Positions 2,437-43,735 of a stretch of DNA of 53,905 nt are shown here, in pieces. Within the stretch, counting starts at the first letter, position 1; every line of letters begins with the position of its first letter. Made by a program: the position numbers and the translations under genes. The notes beneath the pieces are model-generated. The model saw only the letters and a list, made by a program, of their open reading frames with translations. It had not been told where the DNA came from and searched no databases. The DNA comes from a virus: IMG/VR virus record IMGVR_UViG_3300009964_000006; one strand, 5' to 3'.

Positions 2437-2881
2437 ATTTTAATTTATTTTCTAAATCTGATATTCTTTTGTAAAAGCCAGCTGTATGTGGTGATGTACC
2501 TAATTTTAGCACTGTGTAATCATAATGATGTAAATACTCGTGCAGTAATGTGGCTGCCATCTGCTTAATTGAAACTACTTGTTTCTTTATAGCAGTGATA
2601 TTATACAATGTTATTACTTGCAATGCAGGCGTATAAGTGCCTAAAGTCTTACGCCTCAACGTACCACGATAACCAGTGCTATGTGGTTGAGCACGATTTA
2701 CTACCCTTACAACTGGTACAGGTACTTTGAATCGTTCAGAAAGATAAGCACAAAGCATTTGTGCTTTCTTTTGGCGGTCTACAATGCTTTCAGTAGCTGA
2801 CAATACCGCCTTATATTCTTTGTGAGAGAGGCGGCTTAATTTTACCGCCTCAATCTTATTTGATTTCTCGTATGCGTTCAT
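2435..2881 (-). CDS. SprT/DUF45-like putative zinc metallopeptidase-motif protein
   Basis: 148-aa ORF with an HExxH motif (LLHEYLHHYD) followed by SPHTAGFYKRI, a pattern typical of SprT/WLM/DUF45-type minimal metalloproteases. Assigned from the motif only. Confidence 0.5.
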   Translation of the reverse strand: MNAYEKSNKIEAVKLSRLSHKEYKAVLSATESIVDRQKKAQMLCAYLSERFKVPVPVVRVVNRAQPHSTGYRGTLRRKTLGTYTPALQVITLYNITAIKKQVVSIKQMAATLLHEYLHHYDYTVLKLGTSPHTAGFYKRISDLENKLK

Positions 2882-2884
2882 AAC

Positions 2885-3211
2885 TTATGCTATTCTAACT
2901 AAGTTCGCTTTTTTGAAACAACGCCATTCGTCTTTTTCAGTGTCAAAGTACACTTGACAAGTGTCTGCTGTCTTTTTCTCGCCCTTTGTTGTAGGTATTC
3001 TATCACTCATAAGAGTGCCGTAGGCTTCACGCAAGCTGCCGTCTACCTTTTGAAAGTAGAACTTTACAACTCGCTTGCTAAGGGCTGCTTTTAGCTTAAT
3101 GTTTGCCCAAGCGCACTTTAACGCTTCTGATAATGTATAACCATTCTTGCGTACGAACTGCCAAGCAAGACTCATTACCTCTCTCATCGTGTTCTTTAAT
3201 GTTGTACTCAT
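2885..3211 (-). CDS. DUF2693-like phage protein
   Basis: 108-aa ORF. The C-terminal pattern FQKVDGSLREAYGTL...YFDTEKDEWRCFKKANL matches my memory of the Bacteroides phage-associated DUF2693 family. Confidence 0.5.
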   Translation of the reverse strand: MSTTLKNTMREVMSLAWQFVRKNGYTLSEALKCAWANIKLKAALSKRVVKFYFQKVDGSLREAYGTLMSDRIPTTKGEKKTADTCQVYFDTEKDEWRCFKKANLVRIA

Positions 3212-3258
3212 AATCTTTATAGTTTAATAGTTTTATACTTTGTTTCTTAATCACAATG

Positions 3259-3266
3259 CAAAGATA
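3259..3266 (-). promoter_or_regulatory. Bacteroidota -7 promoter box (TATCTTTG on the minus strand) for the 3211..2082 genes
   Basis: Plus-strand CAAAGATA is the reverse complement of the TAnnTTTG consensus, 48 nt upstream of ATG 3211. Confidence 0.5.
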
Positions 3267-3275
3267 TACATATTT

Positions 3276-3346
3276 GCGAACACTTACAAGAGGATGACAA
3301 CAAAATATTCGCATATTAGCGAACTTTAACAAATAAAGGTGTTCGC
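3276..3346. promoter_or_regulatory. Candidate operator set: GCGAACAC (3276..3283), GCGAAC (3319..3324), GTGTTCGC (3339..3346)
   Basis: 8-bp inverted repeat plus a third half-site in the divergent intergenic region upstream of the XRE regulator gene. Confidence 0.35.
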
Positions 3347-3410
3347 ATTTATGTATATTAAATGTTGTTAAGATTTGAAACGTATTTTTCGCACCTATGT
3401 ATATATTTTA

Positions 3411-3418
3411 TATATTTG
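3411..3418 (+). promoter_or_regulatory. Bacteroidota -7 promoter box TATATTTG upstream of the XRE gene
   Basis: Exact TAnnTTTG match only 4 nt before ATG 3423. This would give a near-leaderless mRNA, so the assignment is tentative. Confidence 0.35.
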
Positions 3419-3422
3419 TACT

Positions 3423-3695
3423 ATGAAACAAGATATAAGAATAAAAGAAATTTGCAAAGAGAAAGGTATCACATTAGAAGATTTAGCTAAAAGGTTAGGT
3501 ATTCTTCGCACATCGCTTTCTCAAGCGTTATCACGTAATAGCTTCAGCACGGATAAACTAAGTGATATTGCCAATGCTCTCAATGTCCCTATGTGGCAGT
3601 TGTTCGCATCGCCAGAGGAGGTGCAAAAGGAAAACAACAACATTGTTTGTCCCCATTGTGGGAATCCTATCAAAGTAACCATAATAAAGGAATGA
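3423..3695 (+). CDS. XRE-family helix-turn-helix regulator with a C-terminal CxxC tail
   Basis: MKQDIRIKEICKEKGITLEDLAKRLGILRTSLSQALSRN is a classic HTH_3 pattern. The C-terminus carries CPHCG. The stop overlaps the next ATG (ATGA at 3692..3695). Confidence 0.75.
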   Translation: MKQDIRIKEICKEKGITLEDLAKRLGILRTSLSQALSRNSFSTDKLSDIANALNVPMWQLFASPEEVQKENNNIVCPHCGNPIKVTIIKE

Positions 3696-5152
3696 AGTTT
3701 AATCACTACACATGGGACTTGTATAAACAAACCGATGTCGGCAAGAAAGCTATTAGTTTATTTGAAAACGCTGCCCATGATATATCTATATATGAACTTG
3801 TTTCCAAATATAATCCCATGGAGGCAAGGTTTTCAGATAAAGACAGTATGGAAGATTGTTGTGAACTTCTATGGGAACTTGCAATCAAGAAGATGCTATT
3901 GCCAACCAATATAGATGATGCACGAAATCTATACGAGCAAATAATAGATGGAGCGATATTGTTTGATGATGGAGAACCTTTTATAGAAAAAGCGGACTAT
4001 AAAACATATCTCATGGCTAATATGGATATATCTTTCATGTTGTTTTTCAAGGCTCCAGAGTATTTCTTTCCTAATATATTCCGATACCATTTCTTTGACC
4101 TTATAAAAGTATTTGATATATTTGACATAGAATTGCCATTACCACCTAAAAAGAGTAATTATAGGGCACGGTGTATGTATTATTGGGAACTATGCGAGAT
4201 ACTATATTCTTTTCGTAAAGAAAATGGACTATCTCCGTATGAGCTATGCGCTATGCTTTATGACTTTGGTCAAGGGCTTACAAAGAATATTCCAACAGAA
4301 TTGCCGAAACCATCTAAGGCTTGGTTTATTGGCGGTAAGATTATGCCAATAGAAGATTTGGATTTTACATTTTGGCAAGCTAATGAGGATACTATGCGAG
4401 GAGATATTCTCATACACTACGAAACCTCTCCTATATGTGCAATAACATGTATGTGGATAGCCCAAATAGATGGTGTTATAGACCCGTTCTTTTATTACTA
4501 TGCTAACACATACATAGGAAGTAGAATAAAGCTACCACATGTAACTTTGCAGGAATTAAAGAACGATGAATACTTTTCTTCTCATCCACTTGTCAGGAAA
4601 AACTTTCAAGGAGTAAATGGATGGGAAATAAGTAATAGGGATTATCAAGAGTTTTTGCGAATAATACAGACAAAAAAGTACGATACAAGTAAATTACCAG
4701 TCTTATATGCACCTAAAATAGCTTGTACAAATATAAAATTAGAGAAAGATGTAGAAGAACATTTATTAATACCTTTACTTGATAGTATGGGTATGACAGA
4801 CTACATGCGACAAGTTCCATTACGGGCTGGATGCGGTGAAAGAATATATCCTGATTTTGCGGTGCATTGTACAAAAACAGATAATGGCTACATTGCCAAA
4901 GTACTTATAGAAGCAAAACTTTCCATGCGCAACAAAAAAGAAGTGTATGCAGCATTTCAACAAGCTAATTCTTACGCACATTTGTTAGAAGCACCTATTA
5001 TAATTCTCTGTGATAAGGAAATGCTTCTTGTTTATACAAATGAAAATGGATTTAATAGGAATAGATACAAGAGATTCTTTTGGGAGGATATGGAAAATCC
5101 AGATAGTTTTAACGAACTAAGACAAATAATTAAACTGAAATCTCAAATGTAA
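3692..5152 (+). CDS. 486-aa protein with a C-terminal PD-(D/E)xK nuclease module (HSDR_N/Mrr-like) and a possible central PUA/EVE-like module; candidate defence nuclease
   Basis: The ATG at 3692 is translationally coupled to the XRE gene. Motif YPDFAV...(x17)...LIEAK...QQANSYA lies at about 4847..4960. The central segment WFIGGK...RGDILIHYETSPICAITCMWIAQ resembles an EVE/ASCH-type beta-barrel (weak, by eye). Confidence 0.65.
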   Translation: MKFNHYTWDLYKQTDVGKKAISLFENAAHDISIYELVSKYNPMEARFSDKDSMEDCCELLWELAIKKMLLPTNIDDARNLYEQIIDGAILFDDGEPFIEKADYKTYLMANMDISFMLFFKAPEYFFPNIFRYHFFDLIKVFDIFDIELPLPPKKSNYRARCMYYWELCEILYSFRKENGLSPYELCAMLYDFGQGLTKNIPTELPKPSKAWFIGGKIMPIEDLDFTFWQANEDTMRGDILIHYETSPICAITCMWIAQIDGVIDPFFYYYANTYIGSRIKLPHVTLQELKNDEYFSSHPLVRKNFQGVNGWEISNRDYQEFLRIIQTKKYDTSKLPVLYAPKIACTNIKLEKDVEEHLLIPLLDSMGMTDYMRQVPLRAGCGERIYPDFAVHCTKTDNGYIAKVLIEAKLSMRNKKEVYAAFQQANSYAHLLEAPIIILCDKEMLLVYTNENGFNRNRYKRFFWEDMENPDSFNELRQIIKLKSQM

Positions 5153-26155: not shown

Positions 26156-26227
26156 TTCAGTGTGTTGTTCAGTGTGTTGTTCAGTGTGTTGTTCAGTGTG
26201 TTGTTCAGTGTGTTGTTCAGTGTGTTG
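26156..26227. repeat. Six perfect tandem copies of the 12-mer TTCAGTGTGTTG
   Basis: Copies start at 26156, 26168, 26180, 26192, 26204 and 26216. Confidence 0.95.
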
Positions 26228-26239
26228 CTTTTAATTTTT

Positions 26240-26280
26240 CACCTTTGTAAAAATCTAATATAAAGACAATTACAAAGGTG
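26240..26280. repeat. Perfect 11-bp inverted repeat CACCTTTGTAA / TTACAAAGGTG with a 19-nt AT-rich spacer
   Basis: 26240..26250 and 26270..26280. Each arm contains CACCTTTG, one mismatch from the TAnnTTTG -7 box. Confidence 0.9.
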
Positions 26281-26316
26281 TTCAGTGTGTTGTTCAGTGT
26301 GTTGTTCAGTGTGTTG
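26281..26316. repeat. Three more tandem copies of TTCAGTGTGTTG
   Basis: Copies start at 26281, 26293 and 26305, and end at the integrase stop codon (26317..26319). Confidence 0.95.
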
Positions 26317-27871: not shown

Positions 27872-28558
27872 TTACACAATTCTTTGGCTGACTATTCGAA
27901 TAGCTTTCCACATTCCTCTTATCTCTGTACGACCTACTTCCATTTGCCCATATAATGGATTATCTGATTTTAAAGTAATAATGTTGTTGATAAATAAACT
28001 GTTTTTAAGAATCCGCTTTATAACGAACATTTTGCCATACACCACAAAAACCACGCCCGATAATTCCTCCCATCTTTCTTCGGGTATTCGCATTGCAAGG
28101 ACTTTTGCCTTGTCTGGGATTGTGGGAACCATACTTTCTCCTACAACTTTAAACACCACATATTCTCCACTATTCAAATCTTCTCCTTCTTCTTGCATTA
28201 CTCCGTACTTATCAACGTTATAGTGCTGGTCGTACATATTTTCTATGAACGTAGCAGCAGCATCAGCGTCCACTATCGGCACTTCTATCAATTCATCATT
28301 GATGTATGTCTTTATCGGCTGTGCATTGCTCGGTTCTGTAAGGAACATAGAACCTTCGCCATTTACAAGCCATTTATACGAAACATTAAGATTATCACAT
28401 ATAGCATTTATTAATTTCGGTGCTACATTCCTATCTCCGTTGAGTATTTTAGACAAATTAGACTGATTGAAATCAATCATCTTTGCAAACTTAGATGGAG
28501 ATACATTCTCGTGTTCAATGAGTATTTTAATCCTCATTACAATATTCTTATTCTCCAT
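27872..28558 (-). CDS. CI/LexA-like repressor (XRE HTH + S24 peptidase domain)
   Basis: N-terminal HTH (SPSKFAKMIDFNQSNLSKILNG). C-terminal S24 motifs GESMVPTI (Ser nucleophile) and FVIKRIL (Lys). Confidence 0.85.
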   Translation of the reverse strand: MENKNIVMRIKILIEHENVSPSKFAKMIDFNQSNLSKILNGDRNVAPKLINAICDNLNVSYKWLVNGEGSMFLTEPSNAQPIKTYINDELIEVPIVDADAAATFIENMYDQHYNVDKYGVMQEEGEDLNSGEYVVFKVVGESMVPTIPDKAKVLAMRIPEERWEELSGVVFVVYGKMFVIKRILKNSLFINNIITLKSDNPLYGQMEVGRTEIRGMWKAIRIVSQRIV

Positions 28559-28576
28559 GTTTAAATGTTTTTATTT

Positions 28577-28638
28577 GTTAAAAGAACTATTTTTGTCTTA
28601 CTATTCCTTGTTTAGTAAGTTCAAAAGAACTACCTTTG
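28577..28638 (+). promoter_or_regulatory. Promoter/operator module A: GTTAAAAGAACTATTT ... TTAGTAAGTTCAAAAGAACTACCTTTG
   Basis: Two AAAAGAACTA boxes (28577..28592, 28612..28638). The second ends in the -7 box TACCTTTG (28631..28638). Divergent from the repressor gene and duplicated at 29794..29854. Confidence 0.6.
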
Positions 28639-28644
28639 TAATCG

Positions 28645-28742
28645 CATTTGGTCAAGAAATGCGACTGACATCGCTAAATTTTCCTATTTTGGAGTTTAGA
28701 TATTTCACCTCTGTAAGGCTTGACCACTTGCAGAGGTTTTTG
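28645..28742 (+). ncRNA. Candidate small RNA of about 100 nt transcribed from promoter A
   Basis: Lies between the -7 box and a terminator. Hairpins CGCATTT/AAATGCG and CTAAA/TTTAG plus a terminator stem. The only ORF here (43 aa, MRLTSLNFPILEF...) runs through the terminator and looks non-coding. Confidence 0.35.
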
Positions 28743-28745
28743 TTT
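28707..28745 (+). terminator. Rho-independent terminator
   Basis: Stem ACCTCTG/CAGAGGT (28707..28713 / 28731..28737) followed by TTTTTGTTT. Confidence 0.65.
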
Positions 28746-29152
28746 ATATACAACCGACCTCTCTATTCCACGTTTGACGGCTAAATACACCTTGGCGTGG
28801 TCTTATTTACTTTCTCAAAAGGGTGCATGGAGAAAGACGCAGGACTTGAGTATGGATGCGTGCAGGCGGTGATAATACCGAAAAGCCATACGACACTTAC
28901 AGAGATTATTCCTTTGAAGTGTGCCGAGCGACCGACTGATAACGTTCAGCAGAGAAAAGGCAAGTCCCCGACACCAATCGTAAATAGTTGGTGGGTAAGG
29001 GGAAACTCTGCCTTACTCCCTCCCTCCTCCATTAGCAGTTTATTTATTATTATTATAGTTTTGGCGCAATTTTATTACGATTAGTATGAGAAAGAAAAGT
29101 ATAATCAATCCAATTCCGAAGGAGGCAGCTAATTATATGGCAAGTTTCTTAA

Positions 29153-29740
29153 CTAACTCTCTTCTCCAAGATTTGAAACGAGAGAGAGGACGTCGCTATA
29201 CTTATCAATATTGCCTATCCCATGAATGCCCAGGACAAGTTTCAATAAATCTTCTTTCCTTTTCTTGTTTACTTTTATTTTTGGCGGTTCTTTTATTGTT
29301 GATAATAGCATTTCTACAAGTGCATTACACTCTTTGTATTTAGCTATCTCGGAATATTTTAATATAGCATTTAGAGTATGGTTTATATACCAAAAACCAA
29401 GTCCAAATGGCTCGTTATGAGTAAGGAGATATGCGTATAAATATGCAAAATAGAACTCTAATGCAGCCGAGTCGGCAGTTGTGTTATTGTTTACACGCAA
29501 TATCAAATCACTCAGTACTGCTTCGTTTTTTGACAATTCCTCTTTTTTCTTGTTGAAGTCTATTACTGTGTATATATTCCATCCTATCAATATAGTAACG
29601 AGCAATGTCAATATAGCAACTATCACACCTATGTAGTCTAACCCACTTGTGCGAGGTAGCGACTTGCATAGCGATACAATGCTAAATGTGAACGAAAGTG
29701 CTATGGCGACATATAAAATACATCTTTCTGTTTTGCTCAT
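29153..29740 (-). CDS. Two-TM membrane protein with a helical C-terminal domain (lysogeny-region accessory gene; candidate superinfection-exclusion/Abi-type protein)
   Basis: Track ORF trimmed to ATG 29740 (MSKTERCILYVAIALSFTFSIVSLC...GVIVAILTLLVTILIGW...). Same orientation as the repressor and integrase. Confidence 0.6.
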   Translation of the reverse strand: MSKTERCILYVAIALSFTFSIVSLCKSLPRTSGLDYIGVIVAILTLLVTILIGWNIYTVIDFNKKKEELSKNEAVLSDLILRVNNNTTADSAALEFYFAYLYAYLLTHNEPFGLGFWYINHTLNAILKYSEIAKYKECNALVEMLLSTIKEPPKIKVNKKRKEDLLKLVLGIHGIGNIDKYSDVLSLVSNLGEES

Positions 29741-29793
29741 ATTCTTTATATAAGGTATATTTGTAAACAAACCTTTCTTAGTCTTAAATATTA

Positions 29794-29854
29794 GTTAAAA
29801 GAACTATTTATTTAGTTCAAAATTTGGTTAGTAAGTTCAAAAGAACTACCTTTG
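29794..29854 (+). promoter_or_regulatory. Promoter/operator module B (duplicate of A), candidate early promoter
   Basis: 16-nt (29794..29809) and 27-nt (29828..29854) blocks are identical to module A. -7 box TACCTTTG at 29847..29854, with an extra partial box AGTTCAAAA between them. Confidence 0.6.
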
Positions 29855-30236
29855 CAAACGTAAATATAACACGTAAAACTATTACGTTGCAAATATAAAC
29901 ATTTACTTGTTTTGATGCAAATATTTTCGGTGTTTTTTGACCTACTGAAACAAAATTTAAAGCTGAAAGGTGCTATGAGTAGCAGAGATGCCGTAATCTC
30001 ATAGTGGACTGAATAGGCGGCAATATATGTTAAATGAATATGTAGCGATAGTGCGTACAGTCCATTAAACGCAGTGAGTAAACTTTGGGTGGGCGTCAAA
30101 GGTCGCTAAGCTATATATACGATATAACCCCTACTGTACAAAAGGTACTGCAATCGAATTGGGTAGGGGTACTTTAATGTTTCATTATGGTGGTTCGATA
30201 CGACAAACCATAATTTCTATTTATTTCTTTTTTATT

Positions 30237-30527
30237 ATGAAAGATAAAATTTTAACAGATTTAGAAGAGCAAATAGTAGATGTAGTTTGCTCTTCTATAA
30301 CAAGTGGAGAAAATACTCTCTCTGAAGAAATTCAGAGAGAAGATGGTATTTATGTAGACATTAGGGGTTCTTATGAACTTTGCGAAGTCTACGACAAGGA
30401 CACTGATTATAATGATATTATAGGGGCTTCAGTGTCGTTAGACATCGAGGCTTTCGATAAAGATGAAAATAAAATAGAAATCAACACCTCTGCTATTGAG
30501 ATAGAGGTAGAAAAATATTTTGACTAA
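30237..30527 (+). CDS. Strongly acidic 96-aa early protein (candidate DNA-mimic/anti-restriction type)
   Basis: ATG 30237 (MKDKILTDLEEQIVD...). I count 27 D+E against 8 K+R. It is the first ORF of the early operon. Confidence 0.55.
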   Translation: MKDKILTDLEEQIVDVVCSSITSGENTLSEEIQREDGIYVDIRGSYELCEVYDKDTDYNDIIGASVSLDIEAFDKDENKIEINTSAIEIEVEKYFD

Positions 30528-34235: not shown

Positions 34236-34306
34236 CGATGTATAGTGTAATGGTAGCACAACAGATTTTGGTTCTGTCAGTGGTGGTTCGAGTCCGCCTA
34301 CATTGA
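34236..34306 (+). tRNA. tRNA-Gln (anticodon TTG)
   Basis: Hand-folded cloverleaf: acceptor CGATGTA/TACATTG, D stem GTGT/GCAC, anticodon stem ACAGA/TCTGT with loop TTTTGGT, T arm GGTGG-TTCGAGT-CCGCC. 71 nt with no encoded CCA. Confidence 0.8.
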
Positions 34307-34321
34307 CTTAAATTTATAATT

Positions 34322-43403: not shown

Positions 43404-43735
43404 AGATAACTGAACTAAGAATTGGCGACCGTGTGCAGGAAAAACACACACGGTTTCCAATGACCGTTGTAGGCTTATACTCCACGCTCGACGACCTTAA
43501 ATCAGGCATGGTGGACCTCGATTTCGAGGGCAACGAGGGCGATGTGTGGATACACAAACCCGAAGAACTGGAGAGAGCAGATAGCCAGTCTACAGATTGG
43601 GATAAAGTAAGAATTAACGCTGCCATTGTCAATATGCAAACACTGATGGCACAGTCGTGGCAAATGGAAGCAGACGAAGTGGCAAAGGTAGCTGTAAAGT
43701 ATGCCGATGCGCTAATAAAAGAACTACAGAAATGA
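43400..43735 (+). CDS. Hypothetical protein (111 aa)
   Basis: Track ORF with ATGA overlap upstream. Confidence 0.55.
   Translation: MKITELRIGDRVQEKHTRFPMTVVGLYSTLDDLKSGMVDLDFEGNEGDVWIHKPEELERADSQSTDWDKVRINAAIVNMQTLMAQSWQMEADEVAKVAVKYADALIKELQK

Follow-up and report, generated by a model that had tools for sequence, protein, structure and literature searches.

The immunity region of a temperate phage of Prevotella appears to be governed by two matched promoter modules, one of which opens onto conserved structured RNAs in the place where a Cro-like gene might be looked for. The region lies in a 53,905-nt stretch of viral DNA (IMG/VR virus record IMGVR_UViG_3300009964_000006; the whole stretch is called the window below), where modules A and B stand 1.2 kb apart on one side of a gene for a CI-like repressor. 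Strong comparative evidence argues that the two modules are early promoters under repressor control, P_A and P_B, and that the palindromes within them are predicted operators. We consider it likely that both promoters are conserved features of these phages, with P_A serving an antirepressor operon that is fronted by RNAs and has lost its antirepressor gene (ant) in the window, and P_B serving the early operon.

A preliminary description of the region had pointed to a 16-nt and a 27-nt block repeated in the same order in both modules, and this repeat is real. The 16-nt block GTTAAAAGAACTATTT occurs exactly twice in the window (28577–28592 and 29794–29809) and in none of 100 dinucleotide-preserving shuffles; the 27-nt block TTAGTAAGTTCAAAAGAACTACCTTTG likewise occurs twice (28612–28638 and 29828–29854) and is absent from such shuffles. 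The spacing of the blocks, which had been given as the same in both modules, is nearly so: the start-to-start distances are 1217 nt and 1216 nt, respectively, and the internal spacing is thus off by 1 nt. Extended repeats between the modules reach 21 nt at 95% identity and 37 nt at 92% identity. The same description proposed the box AAAAGAACTA, in at least four full copies, as the operator for the repressor. There are five exact matches in the window, four of them within the two modules; the fifth, at 43717, is probably a chance match, because it lies inside a coding region and has no palindrome. The box does belong to the likely operator, but it comprises only the spacer and the right half of a 14-bp palindrome.

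That palindrome, AGTTCAAAAGAACT (AGTTC-AAAA-GAACT), has only two perfect copies in the window, the predicted operators O_A1 (28618–28631) and O_B1 (29834–29847). O_A1 occupies the spacer between the −33 element of P_A and its −7 box, TACCTTTG (28631–28638, + strand), whose first base it shares. O_B1 is placed in the same way relative to the −7 box of P_B, also TACCTTTG (29847–29854, + strand). Both boxes are of the TAnnTTTG type, which is the consensus of the Bacteroidota −7 promoter element known from Bacteroides promoters. Each module also has a distal, imperfect operator. In module A this is TGTTAAAAGAACT (28576–28588), about 42 bp centre-to-centre from O_A1 and kept in relatives of the same immunity type; in module B it is AGTTAAAAGAACT (29793–29805), with an extra AGTTC half-site at 29814–29818. 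As had been described, module A is divergent from the repressor gene (27872–28558, − strand) and module B faces the early genes. The repressor (228 aa) has an N-terminal helix-turn-helix (HTH) domain and a C-terminal S24 LexA-like peptidase domain. Pfam matches to HTH_3/HTH_19 and Peptidase_S24 are above cut-off, the PHROG match is to a transcriptional repressor, and the motif GESMVPT...K is visible in the protein sequence.

To place these elements in context, more than 90 related loci (individual loci carry numbers of the form L002) were collected by pattern scans of IMG/VR and metagenome contigs and by a protein-based scan. A 15-mer pattern scan of genome contigs returned mostly chance matches, with L111, L123 and L138 as usable loci. 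The loci come from metagenome-assembled genomes of Prevotella or Bacteroidales and from human-associated metagenomes, and no relative was found in the INPHARED phage collection by blastn or megablast. In heteroimmune relatives of at least six types, a different palindrome abuts the −7 box of P_A and tracks the sequence of the N-terminal HTH of the repressor. The palindrome types include AGTTCAAAAGAACT, TATCTAAAAAGATA, TACAGAATTATGTA, ACTGA-N6-TCAGT, TACTACATATTGTAGTA and at least one more; ACTGATTATATTCAGT, like TATCTAAAAAGATA, is a palindrome from another immunity type. Conversely, the N-terminal 74 residues of the repressor are about 80% identical in all relatives with the AGTTCAAAAGAACT operator, including those that have a different C-terminal domain. 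P_B could be read in five immunity types, and there the P_A palindrome of the same genome, or its half-sites, recurs. The leader that follows P_A is nearly identical across immunity types although the palindrome changes. Because palindrome and repressor HTH type change together at two promoters, the operator reading is well supported. One locus presents an unusual case: L217 (3219–6400 of metagenome contig OGJT01000344.1) carries two complete immunity modules of different types in tandem, 1.9 kb apart, each consisting of repressor, operator/promoter and leader RNA, the first with only a remnant downstream. It looks like a recombinant or nested arrangement.

While the positions of the modules and the co-variation of palindrome and repressor fit the proposal that both are repressor-controlled promoters, the origin that had been suggested for them does not hold. 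The preliminary description took the 1.2 kb between the modules for a cassette that had entered this site, between the repressor gene and the early operon, when the immunity-region promoter was duplicated, such that new functions came under repressor control. The identical 16-nt and 27-nt blocks in the same order, and an intervening content that varies among relatives, speak for such a capture. However, both P_A and P_B are present, 1.2–2.0 kb apart, in every relative long enough to contain them (about 20 distinct loci), and alignment with these informative loci gave no relative with a single module and no cassette. Every heteroimmune lineage possesses a matched A/B pair of its own. The flanks are conserved, yet differ from each other: module A has the repressor start codon on one side and a conserved transcribed leader on the other, whereas module B is preceded by a conserved upstream backbone (...TTAAATATTAGTTAAA...) and followed by a different conserved leader. 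In the relatives, the modules are therefore found as independent conserved promoters with unrelated flanks, an outcome that the preliminary description itself had listed as speaking against its model. The interval itself corresponds to an antirepressor operon that is conserved over at least six immunity types. Finally, the gene for a protein with two predicted transmembrane segments (2-TM) is on the opposite strand and convergent with P_A transcription, and module A therefore cannot drive it. We regard capture by duplication as highly improbable. Judged by these comparisons, the two promoters are an ancient, conserved pair whose evolution goes hand in hand with that of the repressor, and not a recent duplication. 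An exact repeat around an immunity region is thus likelier to be a matched operator pair than a duplication scar.

The content of the interval is as previously described, with no Cro-like open reading frame (ORF), a predicted terminated short transcript, ORF-free structured sequence and the minus-strand 2-TM gene (29153–29740). Its history becomes apparent from the relatives. In 32 of 60 distinct loci, module A is followed by about 440 nt without a conserved ORF and then by a 251-aa gene. Because its product has Bro-N and KilAC/ANT domains (Pfam), this gene is assigned as the phage antirepressor gene, ant; it starts about 350 nt past the terminator of the leader. The sequence ahead of ant includes a conserved structured RNA of about 330 nt, RNA330 (28750–29080, + strand); most relatives have it as the 5' leader of ant, and the window retains it although ant is gone. 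RNA330 and ant occur together in the same 32 loci, RNA330 occurs without ant in 17 (the window and 16 others), and 11 loci have neither. In 9 of the 17 loci with RNA330 alone, the window included, RNA330 directly adjoins the convergent 2-TM gene at its 3' end. The ant-less junction of the window maps to 29080/29081, where relatives carry a segment of about 785 bp that is essentially the ant ORF: window positions 28341–29080 align with 2018–2758 of L002, and 29081–29955 with 3543–4413. L021, a phage whose immunity type is another one, shares this junction. The comparison thus identifies the interval as an ancestral antirepressor operon from which the window has lost ant while keeping the RNAs. 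Because 17 of the 60 loci keep RNA330 without ant, the RNAs of the P_A operon probably have a role of their own. An 85-aa ORF (29086–29343, + strand) begins directly at the junction that lacks ant and runs antisense to the 2-TM gene where it overlaps the 3' end of that gene. The N-terminal sequence of this ORF (MRKKSIINP..ANYMAS) recurs after ant in L002 and, in a diverged form, in L030; the ORF may be a genuine small gene, or it may simply reflect conservation of the nucleotides.

The first element downstream of P_A is a leader of about 100 nt (28643–28745, + strand), a candidate small RNA (sRNA) and attenuator with three hairpins. Its transcript would be expected to start near 28643, because conservation of the leader across immunity types begins just 3' of the −7 box. 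Hairpin 1 (28643–28663) presents the loop GGUCAAG (28650–28656), hairpin 2 (28674–28699) stands in the middle, and the third (28707–28737) is a predicted intrinsic terminator with an 11-bp stem, the 9-nt loop GCUUGACCA (28718–28726) and a following U5GU3 tract. A simple terminator scan that allowed loops of 3–8 nt missed this hairpin, probably because its loop is 9 nt long. The minimum free energy (MFE) of the leader fold is −33.9 kcal/mol (z = −4.2). With 52 distinct sequences in 94 instances, the leader sRNA is the most widely conserved part of the system, and it lies beside the repressor genes of all listed immunity types even where the DNA further downstream is different. In the hairpin 2 and terminator stems, changes are compensatory or lead to wobble pairs, the terminator stem having one compensatory pair and two pairs that vary through G.U wobble.

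Hairpin 1 carries a loop that is complementary to the terminator loop (CUUGACC, 28719–28725), and changes in one are matched by changes in the other. The 52 distinct sequences contain five loop pairs: GGUCAAG/CUUGACC, UGUGCAG/CUGCACA, GUGCAAG/CUUGCAC, UGUACAG/CUGUACA and one UGUGCAGA/UCUGCACA variant. Cognate loops form 7–8 contiguous Watson-Crick pairs compared with 2–6 for non-cognate combinations, and shuffled loops reach 7 with P = 0.00125. Six pairs of the loop-loop helix are safe from alignment ambiguity and are 100% paired in 38 distinct sequences. Two of them show compensatory changes (GC in 23, UA in 14 and GU in 1 of the 38 sequences for one pair; UA in 24, GC in 11 and AU in 3 for the other). 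The loop type assorts independently of the repressor type. How the two loops would meet can be pictured in two ways. An alternative helix that joins 28644–28656 with 28719–28731 is the MFE structure of nascent RNA ending at 28728–28732, but once the 3' arm of the terminator is complete, hairpin 1 and the terminator win (−33 versus −27.4 kcal/mol). The loop data are compatible both with competition between terminator and antiterminator and with a kissing contact that leaves the two hairpins intact.

The variants with a change in only one loop (L230 and L237/L247/L248) are G.U wobbles on the + strand, which points to pairing at the RNA level on that strand. This bears on the idea that the hairpins are DNA-level elements, such as a recombination or replication site or a cruciform, or that they belong to a minus-strand transcript, for example the 5' untranslated region of the repressor mRNA. 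A minus-strand transcript across the region would be compatible with the fact that no promoter for the repressor gene was located. On the other hand, G.U pairs are common on the + strand beyond these variants (in hairpin 2, and as UG at terminator pair 81/97 in 28 of 38 sequences) and would be A.C mismatches on the other strand. Furthermore, a U-tract follows the last hairpin on the + strand only, and conservation starts right after the + strand −7 box. We therefore give little credence to either form of this explanation.

RNA330 is likewise conserved in structure. A common secondary structure with 46 pairs was derived over three divergent sequence types. In the alignment, 98.4% of cells are paired, as opposed to 36–49% when the partners are slid by 1–3 columns, and 18 pairs show compensatory changes. 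All 46 pairs are intact in the window copy. A promoter internal to the operon that would serve RNA330 was considered and rejected, as no conserved TAnnTTTG was found when the alignment was inspected by eye. The roughly 440 conserved nucleotides after P_A might instead code for one or more small proteins, the foremost candidate being an 85-aa ORF at 28830–29084 that could substitute for Cro. An ORF of 83–90 aa is indeed intact in the window, L002, L003, L006 and L010, and in L004 it is fused in frame to ant. However, it is frameshifted in L008 and absent in L016, in the L005 type the ORF is in another frame with unrelated sequence, and no Pfam match was obtained. Moreover, the substitutions in the region are compensatory in the RNA helices. 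A coding function was accordingly rejected for the P_A leader, given that its internal 85-aa ORF is frameshifted, stopped or in another frame in relatives, and we think it most unlikely that a small protein explains the conservation. The pattern of substitution indicates that the conserved sequence after P_A is a structured RNA.

Neither of these RNAs resembles a known family. Rfam searches of the whole window at gathering thresholds, and of 28500–30300 at E ≤ 10, gave no relevant match for the leader sRNA or RNA330 (two hits in the latter search were spurious). In five relatives, Rfam returned only tRNA, 3'-end fragments of transfer-messenger RNA (tmRNA) and one weak match to DUF2693 RNA. The window contains no further copies of these two RNAs or of the leader of the early operon.

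That leader, the product expected from P_B, is ORF-free in the window (29859–30236, + strand) and in all relatives, where it measures 320–375 nt, and it is unrelated to the leader at module A. Its structured core (about 29917–30205) belongs to a homologous family found by nhmmer, with 24 predicted pairs of which 17 show compensatory changes. The window copy has no Rfam match at E ≤ 10. The copy in L030 (4416–4640) aligns end to end with the Rfam DUF2693 RNA (RF02956) at 25.2 bits, far below the gathering score of 81.3, and the L030 locus also carries a WYL_2 (formerly DUF2693) gene. The P_B leader may therefore be distantly related to DUF2693 RNA. An attenuator at the start of this leader was considered and rejected because the first 90 nt fold no better than shuffled sequences (z = −1.15 and −0.23). 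The leader is followed by the first early ORF (30237–30527, + strand), which encodes an acidic protein of 96 aa without an HTH, Pfam or PHROG match and is not Cro-like. To the right of module B extends a long + strand block with Erf/RecE-like recombination genes. A tRNA-Gln gene (anticodon UUG; 34236–34307, + strand) lies within this early/middle gene block.

Taken together, these elements suggest the following switch. At each promoter, the 14-bp palindromic operator fills the promoter spacer and touches the −7 box, and one or two imperfect operators lie 20–43 bp upstream. Given this position and the comparative co-variation, dimers of the HTH/S24 repressor bound to the palindromes would block RNA polymerase at both P_A and P_B in the lysogen. 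The S24 domain suggests that the repressor would be removed by RecA-stimulated self-cleavage. After derepression, P_B would express the early operon through its structured leader. The output of P_A, on the other hand, would mostly be a terminated RNA of about 100 nt, with a regulated fraction of transcripts reading through into RNA330 and, where it is present, the antirepressor gene, so as to reinforce or spread derepression. The contact between loop 1 and the terminator loop could be a kissing interaction, or it could nucleate the helix between 28644–28656 and 28719–28731 that competes with the terminator. Either would set the level of read-through, and the co-varying loops are the prime candidate for this control. 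In the window, the protein output of the operon would be gone and only its RNAs would be made.

Several observations weigh against this picture. Transcript ends, repressor binding and read-through are all inferred. No TAnnTTTG element for the repressor gene is present on the minus strand between 28494 and 29855, and the promoter of the repressor gene itself was thus not found. The covariation in the sRNA rests on four or five loop types and that in RNA330 on only three lineages, and kinship among the sequences inflates the shuffle statistics. As a single sequence, RNA330 is no more stable than shuffled versions (z = +0.37), and its helix 107–112/145–150 crosses the helix 94–98/114–118 (alignment A2), which means either a pseudoknot or that one of the two is wrong. 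Loops generally vary more than stems in the leader, including the apical loop of hairpin 2, so that the variation of the two complementary loops need not reflect diversifying selection. Lastly, no other conserved target of either loop was detected within −1.5 to +4.5 kb, and the loops may act in cis or in trans.

The last two observations also count against the proposal that the leader sRNA acts in trans, in a type-specific manner, by pairing through its loops with the nascent leader that a cognate phage, whether resident or newly arriving, is transcribing, and thereby sets read-through into RNA330 and ant. This would add a second, RNA-based layer of specificity that is independent of the protein repressor. 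The presence of five loop pairs, none cognate with another, on a backbone that otherwise hardly varies, and their independence of the repressor type, are in keeping with such a role, and a leader with its own terminator is expected to yield a free small RNA. There are also precedents: ant is controlled by the small RNAs c4 in P1/P7 and sar in P22 (PMC12197685), and the short form of IsrK works in trans on the read-through form of the same RNA, ahead of an anti-repressor-like gene (PMC4825925). However, both partners lie within one RNA of 100 nt, which makes pairing in cis simpler, and P_A should be repressed in the lysogen, which would limit the supply of sRNA. Action in trans is possible but, on balance, doubtful. 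In an extended form that we entertain only tentatively, the leader RNA would be a second specificity determinant that defines at least five "RNA immunity types" independent of the repressor type, with cognate contact, in cis and in trans between phages that are co-resident or incoming, deciding read-through, and RNA330 would function as a non-coding RNA in its own right, perhaps acting as a sensor or decoy when induction is decided.

The remaining gene of the interval encodes the 2-TM protein (195 aa, − strand), which has an N-terminal hairpin of two transmembrane segments and a C-terminal helical domain. Its 51 homologues are named at most "hypothetical protein [Prevotella histicola]", and there was no match in Pfam, PHROGs or PADLOC. 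The AlphaFold (AF2) model has a pLDDT of 74 and gave only weak, uninformative matches to TPR-like helical proteins in PDB and BFVD. The gene is variable: it is absent in many relatives, follows ant in others, has a swapped C-terminal domain in L006 and is duplicated in L030, where the paralogues stand in tandem (1838–2497 and 2881–3465). Across the family, an almost invariant N-terminal membrane hairpin (..P..D.YIGVIVGILSLLVTILIGWNIY..DFNKK) is joined to unrelated C-terminal domains (window, L006 and L030), a pattern typical of fast-evolving accessory or defence-type genes. The 2-TM gene is thus a variable accessory gene that converges on P_A transcription; from where it lies and which way it points, one can only guess at a role in lysogeny, such as superinfection exclusion. 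A TAnnTTTG box on the minus strand, TACGTTTG (29855–29862), makes up a 16-bp palindrome, TACCTTTGCAAACGTA (29847–29862), together with the −7 box of P_B, and the 2-TM gene may thereby have a promoter back to back with P_B. The TACGTTTG box is not conserved in relatives with the same 2-TM gene, and no promoter could be assigned to this gene.

To the left of the repressor gene lies a gene for a tyrosine integrase (26317 to about 27507, − strand). Between the two genes, the segment 27643–27700, read in the minus-strand sense, looks like the 3' end of a tRNA-like gene with its T-arm and acceptor. This segment matches positions 346–363 of the tmRNA model weakly, and the same match occurs beside the integrase in L010, L021 and L030. 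It is probably the core of the phage attachment site (attP), which would mean that the phage integrates at the 3' end of ssrA or of a tRNA gene. Perfect tandem arrays of the 12-nt unit TTCAGTGTGTTG (6 copies at 26156–26227 and 3.2 copies at 26279–26316) lie immediately beyond the 3' end of the integrase gene and could be iteron-like or protein-binding repeats.

In its logic, the system is akin to the lambdoid CI switch (OL/PL and OR/PR of lambda): the repressor combines an HTH with a LexA-like S24 domain, one palindromic operator is repeated at two early promoters where it overlaps polymerase-binding elements, and operator and repressor co-vary among heteroimmune relatives. The layout differs. 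P_A and P_B are co-directional, 1.2 kb apart and on one side of the repressor gene, rather than diverging from both sides of it. Neither promoter is followed by a Cro-like gene, and the first product of P_A would be an RNA. The promoters are of the Bacteroidota −33/−7 kind, with 2–3 sites at a spacing of 20–43 bp compared with the three adjacent 17-bp sites of lambda, and no equivalent of PRM was found.

For RNA control of an antirepressor, three kinds of system invite comparison. The immI operon of P1/P7 consists of the c4 antisense RNA, icd and ant, and P22 has the sar/ant pair. As in these phages, a small structured RNA precedes an antirepressor gene in an operon (in 32 of the 60 loci here, with the window lacking ant), and complementary RNA segments presented in loops differ in a compensatory manner between related phages. 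There is, however, no similarity to c4 or sar in sequence, nor to c4 in Rfam. Unlike for c4, the partner here is the terminator loop of the RNA itself instead of the ribosome-binding region of a downstream ORF, and no icd-like ORF is present. The operon also adjoins the repressor gene and carries the predicted operator of that repressor, and the host belongs to the Bacteroidota. Closest in architecture is IsrK of the Salmonella prophage Gifsy-1, a terminated sRNA with a read-through isoform ahead of an anti-repressor-like gene, which pairs with the downstream orf45 region and opens its ribosome-binding site (PMC4825925). The shared order is promoter, sRNA with Rho-independent terminator, and read-through mRNA with an anti-repressor-like gene, which is seen here as a sequence layout and in the relatives only; one and the same sequence would thus serve as sRNA and as leader of the mRNA. 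There is no homology between the two. Complementarity was seen only within the short RNA and not with the start region of ant, and a structured RNA of 330 nt, rather than a small ORF, separates the terminator from ant. Attenuators of the terminator/antiterminator class include riboswitch expression platforms, RAT/BglG-type systems and the termination control by the CI RNA of P4. The P_A leader resembles them in having an intrinsic terminator soon after the promoter and an upstream segment able to pair with the loop and the 3' arm of the terminator; in the nascent RNA this alternative helix is favoured as long as the 3' arm is incomplete, and its core covaries in five types. It differs in that neither an aptamer nor a leader peptide nor a protein-binding motif of a known kind was recognised, nor any input (ligand, protein, tRNA or ribosome) that would choose between the folds. 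The likeness to DUF2693 RNA concerns the P_B leader alone, and there the L030 copy. Overall, the P_A/P_B system is apparently unrelated to c4, sar or IsrK and found in a different phylum.

To our knowledge, the control of lysis and lysogeny in Bacteroidota phages is almost unstudied. For the best-known Bacteroides prophage, BV01, the triggers of induction remain unknown (PMC8354205). A repressor and an anti-repressor have been described in the BV01/Salyersviridae literature, but not the layout found here, and bulk catalogues of microbiome RNA structures (e.g. PMC8040213) may already list these regions without a function. The locus provides a concrete candidate operator/repressor code over at least six immunity types, as well as three candidate RNA families for the phage RNA repertoire, two without any Rfam match and the third with a sub-threshold match only. 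The slot that cro occupies in lambdoid phages is taken here by conserved RNAs, namely a predicted terminated sRNA with co-varying complementary loops and a 330-nt RNA upstream of the antirepressor. If it is true that the loops set read-through, these phages would possess an RNA-gated antirepressor switch analogous to those of c4, sar and IsrK.

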